IMG/VR virus record: IMGVR_UViG_2713896904_000004
From: a virus
Taxonomy: Duplodnaviria > Heunggongvirae > Uroviricota > Caudoviricetes
Strand: one strand, 5' to 3'
DNA: 30,821 nucleotides
Under the pieces are notes generated by a model that worked only from the letters and a program-made list of their open reading frames with translations, was not told where the DNA came from and ran no database searches. Shown here piece by piece: positions 1,960 to 29,991 of the stretch; within the stretch, counting starts at the first letter, position 1, and every line of letters starts with the position of its first letter. Made by a program: the position numbers and the translations under genes.

Positions 1960-2880
1960 ATGATGAATAATAAAGTCAGCTTCACTAACAGCAATAATCC
2001 AACCATCTCTTTGTCTGCTGTGATCTATTTCCCTCCCCAATTTGATGAAACCCGTCAGTATCCGGCAATTGTGGTATCTCACCCCGGTGGAGGCGTTAAA
2101 GAACAAACAGCCGGAACCTATGCCGAAAAACTGGCGGAAAAAGGATTTGTCACCATCGCTTATGACGCCTCTTATCAAGGTGAAAGTGGCGGCGAGCCGC
2201 GTCAGTTAGAAAACCCATACATTCGTACTGAAGACGTCAGTGCCGTAATTGATTACCTGACAACACTTTCTTATGTCGACAATGCCCGAATTGGTGCGAT
2301 GGGAATTTGTGCCGGTGCAGGATATACAGCCAATGCTGCAATTCAGGATCGCCGCATCAAGGCCATCGGTACCGTTAGTGCGGTCAATATTGGTTCGATG
2401 TTCCGCAATGGTTGGGAAAACAATGTGAAATCTATTGATGCTCTGCCACACATTGAAGCTGGCTCAAACGCCCGAACCAGCGATATTAGCAGCGGAGAAT
2501 ACGCCATTATGCCACTGGCGCCAATGAAGGAGGCCGATGCGCCGAACGAAGAACTGCGTCAGGCCTGGGAGTATTACCACACCTCTCGCGCGCAGTATCC
2601 AACAGCACCGGGTTACGCTACTTTGCGCAGCCTTAACCAGATGATTACCTATGATGCTTACCATATGGCGGAAGTGTACCTGACTCAGCCGATGCAGATT
2701 GTGGCGGGCAGTCTGGCAGGAAGTAAATGGATGAGTGACGACCTGTACGATCGAGCATCAAGTCAGGATAAACGCTATCACATTGTTGAAGGCGCTAACC
2801 ATATGGACCTCTATGACGGCAAAGCCTATGTGGCTGAAGCGATTTCAGTATTAGCTCCATTCTTTGAGGAAACTCTGTAA
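1960..2880 (+). CDS. Alpha/beta hydrolase, dienelactone-hydrolase-like (Cys nucleophile)
   Basis: ORF track 1948..2880. Start moved to ATG 1960 because GAGGAA at 1950-1955 is a Shine-Dalgarno for the ATGs at 1960/1963. Motifs HPGGG, a GICAG nucleophile elbow with Cys, and a C-terminal ANHMDLYD His/Asp fit a DLH-type Cys-His-Asp triad. Confidence 0.75.
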   Translation: MMNNKVSFTNSNNPTISLSAVIYFPPQFDETRQYPAIVVSHPGGGVKEQTAGTYAEKLAEKGFVTIAYDASYQGESGGEPRQLENPYIRTEDVSAVIDYLTTLSYVDNARIGAMGICAGAGYTANAAIQDRRIKAIGTVSAVNIGSMFRNGWENNVKSIDALPHIEAGSNARTSDISSGEYAIMPLAPMKEADAPNEELRQAWEYYHTSRAQYPTAPGYATLRSLNQMITYDAYHMAEVYLTQPMQIVAGSLAGSKWMSDDLYDRASSQDKRYHIVEGANHMDLYDGKAYVAEAISVLAPFFEETL

Positions 2881-2968
2881 ATACCGGGTTATCGTAGATA
2901 TCAAAACAGCATAGAAAATAGCCAGTTTTGGGTAAAGTTTTGGGGAAGATTTTACATCATCATAAAAC

Positions 2969-2991
2969 AACGGGCGTGTTATACGCCCGTT
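2969..2991. terminator. Bidirectional rho-independent terminator hairpin (AACGGGCGT-GTTAT-ACGCCCGTT); terminator of the icd fragment on the minus strand
   Basis: Perfect 9-bp GC-rich stem with 5-nt loop; on the minus strand it is followed by GTTTTATG, 24 nt after the icd-fragment stop. It also lies 89 nt after the hydrolase stop on the plus strand. Confidence 0.6.
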
Positions 2992-3014
2992 ATAATATTT
3001 AACACATGTGGTAA

Positions 3015-3179
3015 TTACATATTTTCGATGATCGCATCACCAAACTCTGAGCATTTCAGCAGCTTAGCGTCGTCCATCAGACGTTCGAAGTCATAGGTTA
3101 CGGTCTTGGCGTTGATTGCACCTTCCATACCTTTAACAATCAGGTCTGCAGCTTCAGTCCAGCCCATATGGCGCAGCAT
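3015..3179 (-). pseudogene. icd: 3' fragment of isocitrate dehydrogenase gene icd (54 codons plus stop), the displaced copy at the prophage attachment junction
   Basis: Minus-strand translation [54 protein letters not shown] matches the C-terminus of enterobacterial Icd. The reading frame is closed by an in-frame stop two codons upstream, so homology ends at about 3180. Same 165-bp size as icdC beside e14 in E. coli K-12. Confidence 0.85.
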
Positions 3180-3412
3180 TAGTTAGATAACTAAATCGTA
3201 ACTATTTGACATAGCAGCATAATTTTACTAATTTGCATATAACTCATTAGCTCTTAGCATTTCCATAACTCATTGATTATCAACATGTGTTTTTGAGTTT
3301 TGATAACCATTTTTAGCATAAAAATAGCAGTTAACATTTGCAGAAGTTAAGATCAGAGAAAATTTTTACCCTGTAGGGTATTACGTCTTAAATGTGACTT
3401 TAATAAACAATT

Positions 3413-4246
3413 TTATTTCTGTAATCGATTTATATTAACGTAAAGCATCTCGATTAGTTCTTTTGCATTTTTACTATAGTGCAATTCTCTATGGCAATTC
3501 GGACAAAGGGCAACACAGTTATCTGTTGTATCAGCACCACCTGAAGACAGGGGAATTACATGATGCACTTCCAAGTATGGGCTTCCATCATTTAAATAAA
3601 ACGGAGCATTTTTACCACAGTTTTCACATATACCTTTACTTTGCTGTAAAATCCAAGCTTTTACCATCGGATCTCGGACATAAACTTTTTGTAGTCTTTC
3701 TACCTCAACTGGTTTCCTGGAGCCCTCGGGCTGACTCAACGTTTTCTTAATTAATTTACTAACCCTCATATTCAGAAGCGATTCATCATCTGTAGGCTGA
3801 GAAAGCTCTGATAGTTCTCCACGTATTATAGACACCCAAAAACTGTCACTATAAATACCTGGAACATTTATCAATATTCGTTTCGTTCTATTGCCGGAAG
3901 GAATTTCCTTTCTCCCCGTACGACTAAAATAAGCCTGATAACCACACATCTTCAAGCGTATATCGCGGGGGCTATTACCAATCAAAGTAAAATATTCACC
4001 AGGATGGATTTTTCTTTCATCCAAAGAATGCATATGTTTTCTGACTGATGATGACGCCAGATATACTACGACTTGGGATACACCAGAATCAACCAACCGT
4101 TCAATGATATAATCAAGAGCGATATTGTAATCTTTGTTTCTGTCACCCGGCCCCCACGACTCAAGGATTAGACCATAAACACCATCCTCTTCACCTATCA
4201 AACACTCAGCTTTCAGTTCAATTCCATTATTATCAAAAACATGCAT
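3413..4246 (-). CDS. mcrA: McrA, type IV (modified-cytosine) restriction HNH endonuclease, 277 aa
   Basis: Full-length match by recall to e14 McrA, including the C-terminal HNH motif (CENCGKNAPFYLNDGSPYLEVHHVIPLSSGGADTTDNCVALCPNCHRELH). AT-rich gene at the prophage end beside pin, as in e14. Confidence 0.9.
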   Translation of the reverse strand: MHVFDNNGIELKAECLIGEEDGVYGLILESWGPGDRNKDYNIALDYIIERLVDSGVSQVVVYLASSSVRKHMHSLDERKIHPGEYFTLIGNSPRDIRLKMCGYQAYFSRTGRKEIPSGNRTKRILINVPGIYSDSFWVSIIRGELSELSQPTDDESLLNMRVSKLIKKTLSQPEGSRKPVEVERLQKVYVRDPMVKAWILQQSKGICENCGKNAPFYLNDGSPYLEVHHVIPLSSGGADTTDNCVALCPNCHRELHYSKNAKELIEMLYVNINRLQK

Positions 4247-4352
4247 AATATTAATCTTTAATCAATTTTTTACGACAATACTACTTTTATTGATAAAATT
4301 GCAACAAGTTGCTGTTGTTTTATTTTCTTTTGTACACAAAGTGACTTTAACT

Positions 4353-4907
4353 TTATTTATCCCCTGCAGGAAACATCTTATACAAAGTTGACACACCAAC
4401 ATCATAGATGATCGCCACCTTCTGGCGAGGAACTCCTGATGCAATTAATCGTCCGGCCTGTTCCCATTGTTCTGGTGTAAGTTTGGGACGACGTCCACCA
4501 ATTCGTCCCTGTGCGCGAGCAGCTTCCAGTCCAGCTTTTGTTCGTTCAACAATCAGTTCACGCTCCATTTCAGCCAGGGCACCCATCACATGAAAAAAAA
4601 AGCGCCCCATTGGGGTACTGGTATCAATTGAATCCGTCAGACTACGAAAGTTAATGCCTCGTTCGCGCAACTCCTCCACCAGCACGACAAGATGCCGCAT
4701 ACTGCGCCCCAGTCGGTCCAGTTTCCAGACCACCAGCGTGTCACCTGCCAATAATGTCCTGAGCAGTTTTTTCAGTCCTGGTCTGTCGGACTTAGTTCCA
4801 CTGATTTTATCCTCAAAAATCCGCTCACATCCCGCGCAGTTCAGTGCATTACGTTGCAAATCGGTGTTCTGGTCATTTGTTGACACGCGTACATAGCCAA
4901 TAAGCAT
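4353..4907 (-). CDS. pin: Serine recombinase, DNA invertase Pin (Gin/Hin/Pin family), 184 aa
   Basis: Starts MLIGYVRVSTNDQNTDLQ with the catalytic Ser-containing resolvase N-domain and a C-terminal HTH; the track ORF 4353..4913 has two extra N-terminal codons. Adjacent to the invertible segment. Confidence 0.9.
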   Translation of the reverse strand: MLIGYVRVSTNDQNTDLQRNALNCAGCERIFEDKISGTKSDRPGLKKLLRTLLAGDTLVVWKLDRLGRSMRHLVVLVEELRERGINFRSLTDSIDTSTPMGRFFFHVMGALAEMERELIVERTKAGLEAARAQGRIGGRRPKLTPEQWEQAGRLIASGVPRQKVAIIYDVGVSTLYKMFPAGDK

Positions 4908-4934
4908 GATCATCCCTCTGAATAAAAACCAGAG

Positions 4935-5324
4935 ATGATGCCAGTTAGCCGTTATTTCTGCATTTTCATAAACGTTGGTTTGGGAGAAGCGGCAAAACGG
5001 AATGTGGGAACAGGAGAAAATCAGAAACCAGATATGTCTGCATTTCCATCTGGCAAAAACTGGTTTCAGTTACCAAGTGGTCATATTGTTCAAATGTTTT
5101 CGATGAATGTTTATGGGGCGGACACTAACGGAACTACTGGTAATTTCCCTATTGCATTTCCTTCAGGTGCACTGGCTGTTAGTGCCTTATGGTCTGATGG
5201 CACATTAACGGCTGCTCCGACCTTTAAACTTATGGGGTACACGACAACAAGGACATCAGTAACCTTAAAAGTATCAACCGGAAATGGTTTGTATGGAACT
5301 ATGATTATCGCAATAGGAAGATAA
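4935..5324 (+). CDS. Alternative tail-fibre C-terminal exon (silent orientation; would fuse to the constant N-terminal part after inversion)
   Basis: ORF in the invertible segment; NVGLGEAAK at its 5' end is encoded by the crossover site, and it is followed by its own tfa gene. Functional coding starts at the crossover (4963), not at the track ATG. Confidence 0.6.
   Translation: MMPVSRYFCIFINVGLGEAAKRNVGTGENQKPDMSAFPSGKNWFQLPSGHIVQMFSMNVYGADTNGTTGNFPIAFPSGALAVSALWSDGTLTAAPTFKLMGYTTTRTSVTLKVSTGNGLYGTMIIAIGR
4963..4988. repeat. 26-bp Pin crossover site, left (TTTTCATAAACGTTGGTTTGGGAGAA), inverted repeat partner of 6823..6848
   Basis: Its reverse complement TTCTCCCAAACCAACGTTTATGAAAA matches the site at 6823..6848 at 21 of 26 positions and resembles gix/hix sites. 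Confidence 0.8.
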
Positions 5325-5325
5325 T

Positions 5326-5769
5326 ATGAATCAATATATTTATTCCCCTTCGGAAAATGCATTTTATGCTGTTAATTTAAAAAATACTTATGAAGTAAAT
5401 GGAACATGGCCCGCTGATGCATTAGATATTCCTGATAACATTTTTGTAAAATATATAGCGGAACCGCCACAAGGGAAAATCCGAGTTGCAGGGGTAAATG
5501 GTTTTCCCACATGGGCTGAAATACCTCAACCATCACATGAAGAACTTATTCAACAGGCAGAATCAGAAAGAAAATTATTGCTTAATCAGGCCAACGAACA
5601 CATGAACAGTAAGCAATGGCCCGGTAAAGCCGCTATTGGTCGTCTGAAAGGTGAGGAACTGGCGCAATATAATTTGTGGCTGGATTATCTGGACGCACTG
5701 GAACTGGTCGATACTTCCAGTGCTCCAGATATTGAATGGCCTACGCCTCCGGCAGTTCAGGCCAGATGA
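5326..5769 (+). CDS. Tail fibre assembly protein (Tfa/Mu U-like), partner of the silent tail-fibre exon
   Basis: 147 aa, immediately downstream of the alternative fibre exon inside the invertible segment; its C-terminal DTSSAPDIEWPTPP mirrors the convergent tfa C-terminus DTSTAPDVIWPELP. Confidence 0.75.
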   Translation: MNQYIYSPSENAFYAVNLKNTYEVNGTWPADALDIPDNIFVKYIAEPPQGKIRVAGVNGFPTWAEIPQPSHEELIQQAESERKLLLNQANEHMNSKQWPGKAAIGRLKGEELAQYNLWLDYLDALELVDTSSAPDIEWPTPPAVQAR

Positions 5770-24452: not shown

Positions 24453-24602
24453 TGCATAATCCTCTTGGATGGTTCGCGTACGATACGTGGCATCCTTCTC
24501 AGAATCGAATCGCACTCCATTCCGGTTTTGCCATAAACGATCTTTTATGCTTCGCTGGATGTAGTTGATAGTTGTTGAAACTCAATGAACAGGAGTTCAC
24601 AA

Positions 24603-24938
24603 ATGAATAGTTATGAATGGGAATGGCTTTTGAACAAAGATGACACCCTATACTTTTTCCCCGTAGGCCATTCTGTAGAAGGTAATTACAAAATTCACTT
24701 TGAGTTGAGCGGTAGTTGTAACCTTAGAGTCTCAGATGCTGAATGGCATGGTAAACCTGTACTGCTGTTCGAATACTTCGATGAAGATGATGACCGCCCT
24801 GCAATAATCGAAATATTAGAAACAACCACTACAACTGTGGAGGCGATGATCGCACATCTGAATAGTATCGATAGTATTTACCATGAACCGATTTACAAAG
24901 CTGTTTACGAGTGGGCTGTAAAGTTTTTCTATCGATGA
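24603..24938 (+). CDS. Hypothetical small acidic protein (111 aa), cargo gene 1 of the Rz-cos island
   Basis: ATG 24603 is preceded by AGGAG at 24591..24595 with 7-nt spacing (track start 24585). AT-rich, opposite strand to phage late genes. No family recognised. Confidence 0.6.
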   Translation: MNSYEWEWLLNKDDTLYFFPVGHSVEGNYKIHFELSGSCNLRVSDAEWHGKPVLLFEYFDEDDDRPAIIEILETTTTTVEAMIAHLNSIDSIYHEPIYKAVYEWAVKFFYR

Positions 24939-24981
24939 TACTTCGTTATCTTTCTGGTATTCACAATACCTTTACATATTA

Positions 24982-25608
24982 ATGACATGCCAGCACAATA
25001 CTGTCACTTACAACCGTTCGGATTACCTAGAGAAAAGTATGATTCAGGATTTACTGATCGAAGCAATTAGTCACGATAGGATGCATAAAAAGTTAAATGA
25101 ACTGAATGGCTACTTCTACAATCGCAAACATGAAACACAAATACGTGATGAGTTAGTTGTTATACTCAATCAAATCAGCACACTAACTGCTTTAAGTGAG
25201 CATCCAAAACTCGGTATCGGCGCTGTTGACATATCACTTTATAACCAGTCGATATTAACGTCTGAACATAATGGCAATGTTGCAACCATCGAGATAAAAC
25301 ACCATTACCCAAAGGATTTACTTTATCGGCAAGTTCAAGAAGACATCATTTCCGATATTTCAAGAGTAATAGTTTCACCAACTACACATTTTATCCATAT
25401 AATCCAGCAAAGAACCAGGATTAATACTCCTTCTTTTGGCCAAGTGAAATTCCTTGAACGTGATGCAAGTGATATCAGCACTTATGTGCAATACCTTGAA
25501 GAGCTAAGTTCATTTCCCAGTAATTTTCATAAAAAAAGTATATGTATTGAGGTACTTGGTGAAATTATGTCGACATATACCTTTAACGTATATTCATTTG
25601 ACAACTGA
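24982..25608 (+). CDS. Hypothetical protein (208 aa), cargo gene 2 of the Rz-cos island; possible PD-(D/E)xK-like nuclease motif
   Basis: AT-rich ORF. GIGAVDISLY followed 21 residues later by TIEIKHH gives a hydrophobic-D ... E-x-K pattern. Alternative start at ATG 25039 (MIQDLL). Confidence 0.55.
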   Translation: MTCQHNTVTYNRSDYLEKSMIQDLLIEAISHDRMHKKLNELNGYFYNRKHETQIRDELVVILNQISTLTALSEHPKLGIGAVDISLYNQSILTSEHNGNVATIEIKHHYPKDLLYRQVQEDIISDISRVIVSPTTHFIHIIQQRTRINTPSFGQVKFLERDASDISTYVQYLEELSSFPSNFHKKSICIEVLGEIMSTYTFNVYSFDN

Positions 25609-26627: not shown

Positions 26628-26954
26628 TTACTCCTTAGAGCCACCAAACTTATTACCGATTACTCTCATTGCAGCCCCACGAATAGCATCGACCCCGATC
26701 AGCCCAACGCCGCCACCAATGGCAACAGAAAGAGATTTAGGCCATCCGACATACTCAAGAGCGGATGCAAAAGTCAGCGTCAGAGCACCACAGAGCAAAA
26801 TCTCGAGCGTTTTTCGTTTCCAGCCACCACCACCGCCAAAATAGGCAATGCGCAAGCCAGCCATAACGATCGACATAATCACTGCGCCCAGCGGTGTGTC
26901 TCCACGCCACCAGCTCTGGACCAACTCCAGCCAGGTATTTGGGTTATGAGGCAT
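26628..26954 (-). CDS. Holin (class I-like, three predicted membrane helices), 108 aa
   Basis: Immediately upstream of the endolysin with a 3-nt gap; three hydrophobic helices and a charged C-terminus. Not lambda S by sequence. Confidence 0.7.
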   Translation of the reverse strand: MPHNPNTWLELVQSWWRGDTPLGAVIMSIVMAGLRIAYFGGGGGWKRKTLEILLCGALTLTFASALEYVGWPKSLSVAIGGGVGLIGVDAIRGAAMRVIGNKFGGSKE

Positions 26955-27106
26955 TTGTAGTTATCTCTCACCTCGCTGATACAGCAGGTGCAAATTGAGG
27001 AAACATCATGTACCGCAAATCAGATGCGGAAACGTCAAAGAAGCCGAGTCAATGGATAACTGCGGGATAGGCTAGGACCAAGGAATCCCCAGACCCAGAA
27101 ACGACA

Positions 27107-27128
27107 AAACCCGCTCGATGGCGGGTTT
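27107..27128 (-). terminator. Hairpin AAACCCGC-CATCGA-GCGGGTTT followed by TGTCGTTTC on the minus strand; candidate tR'-like terminator upstream of the holin
   Basis: 8-bp stem, 6-nt loop, U-rich tail only in the minus-strand orientation; lies in the 290-bp gap between the cargo operon start and the holin start. Confidence 0.4.
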
Positions 27129-27192
27129 AAGCTGTGTGGCGAAGTGAGCACACTTAACAGATTACGATATTTTTTGCGTACGCGTTAGTGTT

Positions 27193-27233
27193 TTGATAGA
27201 ATTTTCAGCCACATAAAAATTCATTCTTATAAT
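27193..27233 (+). promoter_or_regulatory. Candidate sigma70 promoter elements for the cargo operon (TTGATA at 27193..27198 with AAAAAT 17 bp downstream; TATAAT at 27228..27233)
   Basis: Hexamers seen directly in the AT-rich region just upstream of ATG 27246; spacing for the TATAAT hexamer relative to TTGATA is non-canonical, so the exact promoter is uncertain. Confidence 0.3.
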
Positions 27234-27245
27234 TCGGGATATATA

Positions 27246-28421
27246 ATGGATATAACTTGTTTAGAATGTGGCAATGTTCTTGACGACCCAACTGTAGCTT
27301 GCGATAAATGCGGCGCCACGCCTCATGTTGTAGTGCTGGGCAAACAATCGTACTTTCCTATTGGTGCTGTAACAGCAAATCTTGAAAAAAATGATTCAAG
27401 AGCATTTGATTATCGATTAGGTGAAGTTTGGGATCTAAAAAATGAAGTCACATCTGAATTCATAACCAGAATTGAGAAAAAATTTAGCCGAAAAAACAAA
27501 TTTCATAACTTCCTAGACTCAGATCACAACCCTTCATCCATTCCTACGATCCTAAAAAAATACATTAATAAAAATAATGAATTCATTGATTTATCTAGAG
27601 CTATAATAGAGAAGCTTAAACATAATGCTAATAACGAATCGAGAGTTGCCCAACTTCAGGGGGGGAGCGTTGTTTTCATCCACTATAAGTCTACCGAACC
27701 AGAGGATTTGGGAAAACTTCTAATCGTAATGGTTGATAAACAAAGCGCCTATGACTTTGATTCGGATAAGTTGACCCCAACAAGATTAAATCCAATTAAT
27801 ACCGATGCCTTACGGCAGGCTGCGATGTTCGATTTAACTTTATTCGAAGCCAGTTATCCAGAAAACAAGGGTGACTCATATGTACATTTCTTGCAAGGTA
27901 AATCTAAAAGCGATTTTTTCAAAGACTCATTAGGTTGCCGACATGATTCGGACAATAAAAGAAGCATTCAGCAATTATTCAGTGCTATAGATATTTTTGC
28001 TAGTAAAAACTCACTCGGTCGTGTACTGCGTGATACTATTGACAATGAAGTTAAATCCTTACTGGAAAAAAAATCAAAAGATAAATACGGAAATAAGTCC
28101 GTTAAGATAGAGGATATTTCAAAAATAATTGACTCATGCCTGACTGATTCACACAAATGTAAGGGAACGTTTGTCGATTTTGTTAATCTTAATGGTTTCC
28201 AGATTGATCCTCAATTTGAACCAACTCCTAAAGCAGCTGAAAGCGCGCTTACAATTGAAGTGGCAGATAACGACAATAATTTTAAGTTGAAAATAATGCG
28301 TGGAGCTATTGGAGACGAAAAGTCAAATAAGCCTGTAATTCTCACTGACAACAAATGCGAAATTGTGATAAAATTGAGTCAGGCAAATTATGATGAACTC
28401 AAAAGATATAGAGACAGCTAA
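27246..28421 (+). CDS. Cargo protein A: N-terminal Zn-ribbon (CxxC-x10-CxxC) protein with possible NA37/YejK-like nucleoid-associated domain, 391 aa
   Basis: Clean ATG start; AT-rich; Cys5, Cys8, Cys19, Cys22; blocks GGSVVFIHY, LLIVMVD, NPINTDALRQAAMFDLT and YVHFLQGKSKSDFFKDSLG resemble, from memory, conserved blocks of NdpA/YejK. No hydrophobic helices, no Walker A. Confidence 0.75.
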   Translation: MDITCLECGNVLDDPTVACDKCGATPHVVVLGKQSYFPIGAVTANLEKNDSRAFDYRLGEVWDLKNEVTSEFITRIEKKFSRKNKFHNFLDSDHNPSSIPTILKKYINKNNEFIDLSRAIIEKLKHNANNESRVAQLQGGSVVFIHYKSTEPEDLGKLLIVMVDKQSAYDFDSDKLTPTRLNPINTDALRQAAMFDLTLFEASYPENKGDSYVHFLQGKSKSDFFKDSLGCRHDSDNKRSIQQLFSAIDIFASKNSLGRVLRDTIDNEVKSLLEKKSKDKYGNKSVKIEDISKIIDSCLTDSHKCKGTFVDFVNLNGFQIDPQFEPTPKAAESALTIEVADNDNNFKLKIMRGAIGDEKSNKPVILTDNKCEIVIKLSQANYDELKRYRDS

Positions 28422-28423
28422 TA

Positions 28424-29638
28424 ATGACAATTGCTGATGACTTATCAAGATTAGCGCAGATTATTAACGGAGCCTCAAGCAGAGTTGAGGGCTACTACAC
28501 TGTCATAAGTCTTGAAGAAAGCATTGTTATTGTAAATAGTTCTGAAATAATTAGACTGTTACAATCTATAGGTTATAAAAAGGCAACAAACTGCATCGAA
28601 AATAATGAAATTTGGCTAGATCGCCAAGCTTCATCTTGGGATGACGCTATAATTTATGAGAATGTTGAGTCTTTTTGGTCTAGAGTAAACACCCAAAACG
28701 CTCTTCCGAAAAATTATATCATCGGAACGCCGTTAATACTCCCTACTTCTAAGAATGAAAGCATCGAAAAAATCCATATTTTCTTTATGTGGAAAGATAT
28801 CCTTTCATTAATTGCTGATCATCATAACAGTGACTGCTCTGTCTTATTTTTCACCAATGAAGACAAAAGTTATACAGTCGAACTCACGCATTTTTTACAA
28901 TATAGCGAGATTAATCGCTTATCGAACTCGTCTCTTAAATATGAAATTATAAAGGAGCTTCTCGACACAATAAAAATCAATGATTTACACAAAAGCGAGC
29001 GCAAGCTCGTTATACGTTCAGCCATAAACGAAGTATTTAAAGCAAATGGTACATTCAATTTCTTTGACTTGCTTAACTCTACTGAACTCGTCAGAAAAAA
29101 ATATGATGAACTATATGAGATTTACACAAAGAGGTTTTCTGTAAATAAAATTCTTAACGAACTCGATGAGAAAAATCTTGAGTTCACGAGTAAAATTAAC
29201 GAATTCATATCATCTAATCAGACAAAAGCATTGACTATTCCCGGTGCATTAATAGCAGCTGGTGGCTTAGTGAAGGCTAATGAAACAACCGAAGCAATAT
29301 TGATTATCGCAGGACTTTGGATGATAAAAAAAGTCAATTACATTTCTATTGAGATATTCAATGAAACATTCGACAACTTACGTTCTCGAGTGGAGTCCGC
29401 TTTCGATAAGTATTTAAAGTTTGAAGAAAATAAAGAAATCAAAGATAATGCAGATAGTATTAAGAGTAGCATTACAGGTTTGATTGATAAAGCTAAAAAA
29501 AGGATGAGAACTGTTAAATATCTCGCATCAGCCATGTTTTATGGAGGCCTTATTTACGTTGGATATAAACAGTTCCCAGTCTTTTTTGAAAAATCGGCAG
29601 TAAATCTATTTTATTTTTTATGCCATACTATAAGCTAA
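28424..29638 (+). CDS. Cargo protein B: 404-aa protein with C-terminal hydrophobic segments (putative membrane effector), translationally coupled to A
   Basis: ATG 2 nt after the stop of A; hydrophobic stretches at residues 269-301 (ALTIPGALIAAGGLV / AILIIAGLWMI) and 366-388 (YLASAMFYGGLIYVGYKQFPVFF); no catalytic motif recognised; 3' end overlaps the Q gene on the other strand. Confidence 0.75.
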   Translation: MTIADDLSRLAQIINGASSRVEGYYTVISLEESIVIVNSSEIIRLLQSIGYKKATNCIENNEIWLDRQASSWDDAIIYENVESFWSRVNTQNALPKNYIIGTPLILPTSKNESIEKIHIFFMWKDILSLIADHHNSDCSVLFFTNEDKSYTVELTHFLQYSEINRLSNSSLKYEIIKELLDTIKINDLHKSERKLVIRSAINEVFKANGTFNFFDLLNSTELVRKKYDELYEIYTKRFSVNKILNELDEKNLEFTSKINEFISSNQTKALTIPGALIAAGGLVKANETTEAILIIAGLWMIKKVNYISIEIFNETFDNLRSRVESAFDKYLKFEENKEIKDNADSIKSSITGLIDKAKKRMRTVKYLASAMFYGGLIYVGYKQFPVFFEKSAVNLFYFLCHTIS

Positions 29639-29974
29639 CATTGCTAAACAGCCGTCAACAAACCCCATGGCAGTCTGCAATTCCTTCCTAATTGTGCCAT
29701 CTGAACATCTTCTCTTCTTGGCAATAGTGCGTAATGAGATACCAATAACAAAGTGAGCTATGAGCAGCTCATATTCCTCTGGTTTATACTTTCGCAACCG
29801 AGCCACACAACCGTCTATCATGATGCCTTCATCATCATCACACTGGAGACGTGACTTTTTACCGTGTGGTAAAAGTCCCTTGAAACCAGCCGCTATCGGC
29901 TGCCAGTCCACACCACTATTTTCTGCTGCAGCCCATGCTCCCCAGCGGTCCAATACTTCATACATATCACGCAT
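29618..29974 (-). CDS. Late-gene antiterminator Q (QuuD-like family), 118 aa from ATG 29974
   Basis: MRDMYEVLDRWGAWAA...WQPIAAGFKGLL...CDDDEGIMIDGC...CSDG matches, by recall, DLP12 QuuD (MRDIQMVLERWGAWAA...SIAAGFKGLI...). Located upstream of the lysis cassette. The track ORF has 5 extra N-terminal codons. Confidence 0.7.
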   Translation of the reverse strand: MRDMYEVLDRWGAWAAAENSGVDWQPIAAGFKGLLPHGKKSRLQCDDDEGIMIDGCVARLRKYKPEEYELLIAHFVIGISLRTIAKKRRCSDGTIRKELQTAMGFVDGCLAMLAYSMA

Positions 29975-29991
29975 CAACTTTCTCCACAAAA

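Follow-up and report, generated by a model that had tools for sequence, protein, structure and literature searches.

Identity of the operon

The 30,821-nucleotide (nt) stretch of virus DNA analysed here (IMG/VR record IMGVR_UViG_2713896904_000004, Caudoviricetes; hereafter, the window) carries an AT-rich two-gene operon at positions 27246..29638, and the locus raises the question of what this pair of genes does and whether it is new, as a preliminary description made from the sequence alone had proposed. The comparisons below indicate that the operon is almost certainly one allele of the two-gene anti-phage system DS-1, which has been published. It lies on the strand opposite to the late genes, as cargo of the slot between the antiterminator Q and the holin gene of a prophage. 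The system is already known, being named, experimentally validated and built into NCBI annotation models. Its two genes are the following.

27246..28421, plus strand: DS-1A, YejK-like (NA37) nucleoid-associated anti-phage protein of 391 amino acids (aa), presumed sensor
28424..29638, plus strand: DS-1B, anti-phage partner protein of 404 aa, presumed membrane effector

The assignment was obtained from two curated equivalog models of NCBIfam release 20. DS-1A scored 451.2 bits against NF053868.1 (DS1_1_antiphage, named 'nucleoid-associated anti-phage protein'; cut-off 330, E 2.5e-135), with residues 10-377 aligned on profile positions 3-369 of 369, and DS-1B scored 375.4 bits against NF053869.1 (DS1_2_antiphage; cut-off 315, E 2.5e-112) over profile positions 1-337 of 337. 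DS-1 (working id D390) was reported by DeWeirdt, Mahoney and Laub in 'DefensePredictor' (Science 2026, PMC13092281; bioRxiv 10.1101/2025.01.08.631726, the bioRxiv version dating from January 2025) and corresponds to NZ_RRVY01000002.1 220602..222994, a segment of 2393 base pairs (bp) encoding WP_000355468.1 and WP_000150292.1 (PMC13092281 supplementary tables). The window holds the same two genes in the same order and with the same lengths (391 + 404 aa; 2393 bp), and its operon is identical to the reference DNA, carried by the RefSeq genome L001, at 2383 of 2393 nt, with 10 differences. At the protein level, 390 of 391 residues of DS-1A match WP_000355468.1, with Y281 replacing H, and 403 of 404 residues of DS-1B match WP_000150292.1, with N56 replacing T; positions 281 and 56 are both variable and non-conserved in the family alignments. 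The reference is the allele that was assayed, and ours differs from it by one residue per protein. The transcriptional unit of that paper is defined by genes on the same strand at most 30 bp apart (PMC13092281), and in our operon both genes lie on the plus strand with a gap of 2 nt. L001, which bears the exact DS-1 accessions, shows the operon at the same Q-holin position.

Most of the operon was present in 106 of 5426 complete E. coli genomes (~2%), and gene B is already labelled 'anti-phage protein' in at least one recent RefSeq record. Neither protein matched PADLOC-DB 2.0.0 (2023), including its Rex-type pairs, with no family returned at E up to 1; this null was considered as a sign of novelty and rejected, because the database is older than the DS-1 paper. 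No literature on WP_000355468.1 or WP_000150292.1, nor other names for the system, was found beyond the DefensePredictor paper and a preprint on the PANGU systems discussed below. DS-1 gave no match, as DNA or protein, among 50,697 GenBank phage records, and is thus known from integrated elements only, not from isolated phages. Regarding the preliminary description, its functional guess was right and its claim of an undescribed system was wrong: both proteins exceed the cut-offs of the DS1_1 and DS1_2 antiphage models and correspond to the DS-1 accessions, and a confident match of both to an already characterised family, such as a named defence system, is what that description had itself listed as refuting the claim. 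As a discovery the operon is therefore of limited importance, DS-1 being named, validated and within the NCBI annotation models. What is new in the present analysis concerns the clade-specific zinc ribbon of DS-1A, the obligate pairing of the two genes (18/18 loci), the N-terminal domain of DS-1B, an orphan in fold, and the Q-holin interval as a hotspot of cargo exchange.

Gene structure and composition

Both open reading frames (ORFs) are real genes, because stop-free runs of 391 and 404 codons are improbable at the operon's own base composition (chance 4e-14 and 1.5e-14, respectively), the remaining four frames of the interval are open for at most 83 codons, and the exact DS-1A and DS-1B protein sequences occur in existing records of 220 and 67 contigs, respectively. 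The description of two plus-strand ORFs with the second ATG 2 nt past the first stop held, the A-B junction reading TAA-TA-ATG. Its remark on base composition held as well, with a guanine-plus-cytosine (GC) fraction of 0.346 in the operon vs 0.555 in the late genes and 0.46-0.55 in the immediate flanks. Upstream of DS-1A, a consensus scan combined with reading of the sequence pointed to a possible promoter, composed of TTGATA-16-AAAAAT at 27193-27220 and a perfect TATAAT 12 nt 5' of the ATG.

27193..27234, plus strand: candidate sigma-70 promoter region of the operon, a consensus match only

Reported anti-phage activity of DS-1

The reference operon was cloned with its native upstream region and promoter on a low-copy plasmid in E. 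coli MG1655 and challenged with 24 phages (PMC13092281). Expressed as -log10 of the efficiency of plating, the effects were 7.6 for Bas1 (no plaques), 2.7 for Bas26, 1.7 for both Bas3 and T3, 1.0 for T5 and 0.9 for T7, while SECphi27 formed smaller plaques only; this table lists every effect recorded for DS-1 and has no entry for T4, RB69, Candy, lambda or the other panel phages (PMC13092281 Table S7). By taxonomy, Bas01 belongs to the Drexlerviridae (T1-like) and Bas26 to the Markadamsvirinae (T5-like). The sensitive T1-, T5- and T7-like phages all degrade host DNA, which lambda is not known to do, and all have unmodified DNA.

The NA37 domain and zinc ribbon of DS-1A

Two elements were recognized in DS-1A.

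27258..27311, plus strand: zinc ribbon of DS-1A (residues 5-22), CxxC-x10-CxxC
27435..28373, plus strand: NA37 domain of DS-1A (residues 64-376), Pfam PF04245

The NA37/YejK resemblance given in the preliminary description, with a check against PF04245 proposed, proved real: the Pfam model matches residues 64-376 with 84.2 bits against a cut-off of 24.6 (E 1.4e-23), and the homologue profile of DS-1A matches the solved YejK structure 9BE2 (E 1.3e-19). Two blocks of the domain, IEKKF.RKNKFH and DALRQAA.FDLTLF, are invariant among DS-1A homologues. E. coli YejK (NdpA, PDB 9BE2), a housekeeping nucleoid-associated protein, belongs to the same Pfam family; unlike it, DS-1A bears an N-terminal zinc ribbon, belongs to the AT-rich cargo of a prophage and is invariably accompanied by a partner gene. 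An assignment of DS-1A as a YejK orthologue was rejected, the YejK equivalog NF001557.0 giving 80.7 bits against a cut-off of 341.

The N-terminal CxxC-x10-CxxC motif was found as described, with cysteines at residues 5, 8, 19 and 22, and Pfam zinc-ribbon models match it below threshold only. The authors of DS-1 placed YejK/NA37 at residues 42-382 of WP_000355468.1 (391 aa) and, by HHpred, a NinF-like zinc ribbon at residues 3-26, labelling A with a zinc finger and YejK and the 404-aa B with a transmembrane segment and coiled coil (PMC13092281). The ribbon is kept in Enterobacterales homologues of DS-1A down to 41% identity, while Pseudomonas and more distant homologues carry an unrelated extension instead. 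The ribbon is clade-specific. Since the Pseudomonas A protein lacks it and the partner of that protein is nevertheless a clear B homologue (hhalign probability 100%, E 2.9e-56), it is an accessory feature outside the core of the system.

The partner protein DS-1B

Three regions were distinguished in DS-1B.

28424..29077, plus strand: N-terminal soluble alpha/beta plus helical domain of DS-1B (residues 1-218), mildly acidic
29081..29341, plus strand: juxta-membrane helix (220-269) leading into a hydrophobic helical hairpin (267-306), the family signature
29522..29575, plus strand: C-terminal hydrophobic helix of DS-1B (367-384), from family-averaged hydropathy

DS-1B matches phrog_5023 (E 4e-158) and contains no Pfam domain, toxSAS included, in agreement with the earlier remark that it has no recognizable catalytic motif. 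The AlphaFold2 model of the full-length protein reached a predicted local distance difference test (pLDDT) score of 84.8, and the N-terminal domain (~218 residues) modelled alone reached a pLDDT of 92.8 and a predicted template modelling score of 0.86. Helices were predicted at 220-269 (very long), 271-282 and 288-331, with more long helices beyond. Hydropathy averaged over the B family peaks at 267-306 and 367-384, so the hydrophobic segments first seen in the single protein are conserved across the family. Conservation within the family is highest in the juxta-membrane helix and the first hairpin arm, where P273 is unchanged in all 43 distant members and K257, F238, S239, K242, E246 and Q266 are conserved in more than 80%. 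Within the N-terminal domain, the residues that stand out are R193 (always positive), D187, E192 and E203, which on the basis of their conservation are candidate contact residues.

A sequence search of DS-1B against the PDB returned no relative, and fold searches with the full-length protein returned generic helix bundles only. The ClyA family of alpha-pore-forming toxins took the top Foldseek rank, but its best E of 0.35 is far from significance; no significant similarity to a member of that family was obtained, and the resemblance seen in the model is a lead only. The N-terminal domain of DS-1B is without a known fold relative.

Spread of the family and pairing of the two genes

A profile search for the B family returned 780 representatives at E<=1e-3 and 377 at E<=1e-10, nearly all of ~400 aa. 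The 18 loci with a B homologue that were compared come from Enterobacterales, Pseudomonas, Colwellia, Thalassotalea and Pseudoteredinibacter. In all 18, the B homologue is immediately preceded by an NA37 gene of the same orientation, and the A-B pairing is thus obligate (18/18 loci). Some related pairs adjoin AbiEii, AAA_15/21 or BstA genes.

Several individual loci show a different organization or origin. A DS-1-like pair of Pseudomonas aeruginosa (L006-L008, 5001..7422) adjoins a Pf-like filamentous prophage (Zot, DUF2523); its NA37 protein has no zinc ribbon, its partner has 425 aa, and the two genes overlap by 17 nt. Contig L011 (JAATEZ010000277.1, 2641 bp), from a metagenome bin labelled Lactobacillales, bears a DS-1-like pair whose partner is 38% identical to B; it is the only non-proteobacterial match and is probably a binning error, being otherwise the sole evidence of spread beyond one phylum. 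In E. coli NZ_OZ547033.1 (1466973..1470547), the insertion sequence IS1 splits the NA37 gene, and gene B is annotated 'anti-phage protein'. In Photorhabdus viridis (L021, 3594..4972), A is truncated and B is broken into three frames. These last two loci are natural knock-outs of the DS-1 system.

Relationship to PANGU systems

YejK-like proteins in two-gene defence operons were described as PANGU by Li et al. in an April 2026 preprint (bioRxiv 10.64898/2026.04.06.716658), which does not cite DS-1. According to this preprint, the nucleoid-associated proteins (NAPs) of PANGU bind the chromosome non-specifically and require DNA longer than ~200 bp; when T4 nucleases, EndoII first, degrade the chromosome, the NAP leaves the nucleoid and binds with nanomolar affinity to the acidic, DNA-like 'DMK' domain of its partner, which arrests the cell. 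In type I PANGU the partner is an alarmone synthetase, and a DNA-binding-dead NAP makes the pair toxic without phage, while the type II partner combines a DMK domain at its N-terminus with a transmembrane domain at its C-terminus. For PANGU-Ecu (type II, Pag2A + Pag2B, from a uropathogenic E. coli strain), both genes are needed and neither is toxic alone, Pag2A-GFP leaves the nucleoid upon infection, the dissociation constant of DMK and Pag2A is 19 nM, and T4 escapes through denA mutations; the action of the type II membrane protein is stated to be unknown (bioRxiv 10.64898/2026.04.06.716658).

PANGU NAPs were defined by an NA37 hidden Markov model match at E <1e-10 in a protein no shorter than 300 aa, and their operons by a spacing of <40 bp between neighbouring genes. 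DS-1A falls within these limits with its NA37 E of 1.4e-23 and its 391 aa, as does the bicistronic operon with its 2-nt gap. The architecture of DS-1 resembles that of type II PANGU, to which it is likened by description, as the preprint gives no Pag2A or Pag2B accessions. Both consist of two genes, one for a YejK-like NAP and one for a protein whose soluble N-terminal domain is followed by membrane (PANGU) or hydrophobic (DS-1) segments towards the C-terminus, both originate from E. coli, and both have anti-phage activity. In contrast, a zinc ribbon is present in DS-1A and none is mentioned for Pag2A in the preprint, and the type II DMK domain is strongly acidic, whereas the N-terminal domain of DS-1B is mildly so. 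Likewise, type I PANGU (Pag1A + the GRel toxSAS Pag1B) shares the NA37/YejK-like sensor family with DS-1, and its mechanism has been solved experimentally as release from the nucleoid followed by a 2:1 complex with the acidic domain of the effector; its effector, however, is a cytoplasmic alarmone synthetase, and no toxSAS domain was found in DS-1B with Pfam.

Another comparison is offered by lambda RexAB, a two-gene prophage system in which the cytoplasmic, DNA-binding RexA activates the inner-membrane RexB and causes depolarisation. Like DS-1, it is a prophage-encoded pair expressed from the lysogen, with a DNA-binding sensor and a membrane effector; by contrast, RexA is not known as a member of the NA37 family, RexB is a four-transmembrane channel, and no sequence relationship was detected, neither DS-1 protein matching any PADLOC model.

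Proposed mechanism and alternatives

DS-1 has a strong phenotype (>10^7-fold against a T1-like phage). By analogy with PANGU, we infer that DS-1A resides on the nucleoid, is released from it and binds DS-1B, and that the membrane is then damaged and the infection aborted. In uninfected cells, DS-1A would sit non-specifically on chromosomal DNA, and phages that destroy the host chromosome early (T1-, T5- and T7-like) would release it. The free DS-1A would then bind the cytoplasmic N-terminal domain of DS-1B, which may be anchored in the inner membrane through its conserved hydrophobic helical hairpin and its C-terminal hydrophobic helix. This binding would switch DS-1B to a membrane-damaging form, so that the infected cell stops supporting the phage (abortive infection). 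We consider this release-bind-activate model slightly favoured, and the identity of the operon combined with a PANGU-like mechanism, taken as one explanation, fairly probable. The sensor-effector reading of the preliminary description survives in large part: the locus is a defence operon that encodes a DNA-binding NA37 protein and a membrane-associated partner, backed by the published experiments on proteins that differ by one residue each, and the logic connecting them is supplied by the PANGU preprint; its abortive-infection component is probable only.

Several observations weigh against the release-bind-activate model. The N-terminal part of DS-1B appears only mildly acidic, with a net charge of -8 over 268 residues and an isoelectric point of 5.3 (family mean -7.7, range 0 to -18), an acidity far below that of classical DNA mimics. 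The arms of the hydrophobic hairpin are short, ~11-17 residues, so that a true transmembrane topology is putative, and the model assigns no role to the zinc ribbon. The host chromosome is degraded by T4 as well, yet no T4 effect is recorded for DS-1, and simple sensing of nucleoid loss does not explain this escape. Conversely, the two PANGU systems studied restrict T4 and not T1 or T5 (bioRxiv 10.64898/2026.04.06.716658), PANGU-Ecu among them, whereas DS-1 acts on T1-, T5- and T7-like phages. These opposite spectra are suggestive but not decisive, because the expression systems differ: PANGU-Ecu was expressed with isopropyl beta-D-1-thiogalactopyranoside from pET28a, and DS-1 from its native promoter on a low-copy plasmid. 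In the DefensePredictor paper, YejK is presented as a domain with a newly validated role in defence, and the mechanism of DS-1 is not dissected (PMC13092281). The spectrum of DS-1 is a mirror image of that of the NAP systems with a known trigger and offers a good test of how general nucleoid-loss sensing is.

The escape of T4 bears directly on the main rival explanation, in which DS-1A, perhaps through its zinc ribbon, senses incoming phage DNA, a DNA-protein complex or a protein, and DS-1B blocks entry or early development at the membrane, so that the cell survives as in superinfection exclusion. That T4 is unrestricted despite degrading the chromosome argues against a pure nucleoid-loss signal and for such direct sensing. 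The protection against Bas1 is total (>=10^7.6-fold, no plaques), which resembles an early block more than leaky abortive infection; no effect is recorded for phages whose DNA is heavily modified, such as T4 and RB69, the sensitive ones having unmodified DNA; and the zinc ribbon is an extra module that is unmentioned for the PANGU proteins. Against it, the sensitive phages come from three unrelated families that differ in receptor and injection machinery, a poor fit with an entry block, and the A-B pair persists in Pseudomonas and other distant relatives that have no ribbon, so the ribbon cannot be the core sensor. Moreover, type II PANGU shows the behaviour of abortive infection, and phages mutated in a nuclease (denA) escape it. 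We therefore regard direct sensing with exclusion as unlikely, though less so than either of the two remaining alternatives.

The properties reported for type II PANGU also bear on a toxin-antitoxin-like or addiction module, in which a constitutively toxic DS-1B is held by DS-1A until host shut-off by the phage depletes A and frees the toxin. The 2-nt coupling and the 18/18 pairing are as expected of toxin-antitoxin pairs, and decay in the Photorhabdus locus L021 hits both genes together. In type II PANGU, however, neither gene is toxic alone and both are needed for defence, and DS-1A, with 391 aa, is far bigger than typical antitoxins and has a complete NA37 domain, for which DNA binding was demonstrated in relatives. 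The E. coli genome with IS1 in gene A and B intact, although a single case, is hard to square with a B protein that is toxic alone. This explanation seems to us quite improbable.

A further proposal is that DS-1 represents a branch of nucleoid-protein-based immunity with a mechanism of its own, rather than one more type II PANGU. We put this forward tentatively, as a rather doubtful reading, because of the clade-specific zinc ribbon on the sensor, the effector with an N-terminal domain without fold relative and a juxta-membrane helix and hairpin (P273 invariant), the response to takeover of the T1, T5 and T7 type and not of the T4 type, and the location, antisense and close to Q, in a hotspot where e14-like and DLP12-like prophages carry cargo.

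The Q-holin interval as a site of cargo exchange

The position of the operon between Q and the holin gene, as given in the preliminary description, was borne out by Pfam matches.

29618..29989, minus strand: antiterminator Q, PF06530, E 2.6e-47
26628..26954, minus strand: lambda-family holin, the first lysis gene, PF05106, E 5.7e-25

The holin annotation is also found in L001 and in the related prophage L002, and the GH24 lysozyme that follows the holin is named after the gene annotated in sibling loci. The slot is occupied by DS-1 in two different prophage backbones, one DLP12-like (L001) and one e14-like (L002 and the window). In our operon, the 3' ends of Q and DS-1B overlap convergently by 21 nt (29618..29638), and the identical overlap is annotated in L001 and L002. 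Kept in both backbones, this overlap suggests that Q and the DS-1 cassette move together and that no space is left for a late promoter directly past Q. Sibling prophages with a near-identical holin and a Q-family antiterminator carry other opposite-strand cargo in the slot, as follows.

Window 26955..29640, strand opposite to the late genes: DS-1
L023 3797..5128, strand opposite to the late genes: KAP-family NTPase
L022 3901..5628, strand opposite to the late genes: TIGR04255-family gene and two hypothetical genes
L009 (K-12 DLP12) 2030..4326, strand opposite to the late genes: porin pseudogene nmpC

In e14-like and DLP12-like prophages, the interval between Q and the holin is a hotspot at which cargo is swapped. 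The exchange spares a segment next to the holin: about 240 E. coli genomes share just the first 233-250 nt of a 291-nt query covering 26955-27245, and the two of them that were looked at (L022 and L023) have different cargo past this conserved segment.

26955..27200, minus strand: holin-proximal intergenic segment, conserved irrespective of cargo
27128..27107, minus (late) strand: GC-rich hairpin AAACCCGCCATCGAGCGGGTTT followed by a T-run, inside the conserved segment

From its sequence, the hairpin is a candidate tR'-like terminator of the late leader, and a consensus scan returned no matching minus-strand promoter near it. The conserved segment presumably holds the late promoter, leader and terminator; if so, the DS-1 cassette is upstream of them and antisense. 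The stx genes are co-directional with the late genes and downstream of the late promoter and terminator. The comparison with the slot used by stx accordingly holds for the interval and not for the exact position, DS-1 being on the Q side of the ~240-bp holin-proximal segment and antisense. On the rather doubtful reading of DS-1 as a distinct branch, late transcription of an induced prophage could switch DS-1 off and so spare the phage's own lytic cycle.

This arrangement bears on an alternative in which the operon mainly serves the prophage, through lysogenic conversion or regulation (DNA structuring, silencing or antisense modulation of late genes), with plasmid-borne resistance as a side effect. 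The operon runs antisense to the late genes and is bounded by Q and the conserved leader next to the holin, the same slot carries non-defence cargo such as the porin gene nmpC of K-12 DLP12, and NAPs are able to silence AT-rich DNA. Yet the cloned operon alone, outside any prophage, protects up to 10^7-fold, homologous pairs are found outside prophages beside other defence genes, and the operon is a swappable cassette in two different prophage backbones. A main function in the service of the prophage is therefore very improbable.

Additional cargo of the prophage

A second cargo island, also mentioned in the preliminary description, was found as an AT-rich plus-strand segment at 24585..25608, between the HNH/terminase genes and the Rz/Rz1 lysis genes.

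24585..24938 and 24982..25608, plus strand: second AT-rich island, ORFs of 117 and 208 aa, GC 0.37-0.39

Its ORFs gave no match in Pfam, NCBIfam release 20 or PADLOC. The 73-82 E. coli genomes with this island have it annotated as 'hypothetical protein (x2)', and it is absent from L002, a prophage otherwise collinear with ours. Unlike DS-1, it is uncharacterised cargo.

The presence of mcrA in the same prophage, likewise claimed earlier, was confirmed by an end-to-end PADLOC match.

3413..4246, minus strand: mcrA, type IV methyl-directed restriction enzyme, PADLOC mREase_IV, 277/277 residues, E 1.9e-200
4353..4913, minus strand: Pin-like invertase, adjoining mcrA

The prophage carries at least two defence functions (DS-1 and McrA) and one island of unknown function. 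The window presents DS-1 in a natural lysogen, beside McrA and a further AT-rich island of unknown function, at a slot where prophages exchange defence cargo, a setting useful for studying the trade of immunity genes among temperate phages. The location of mcrA beside a Pin-like invertase is the e14 arrangement. Two small plus-strand ORFs adjoin the invertase (4935..5769); thus, the operon is antisense to the late operon, as had been noted, while not every other gene of the prophage is on the minus strand.

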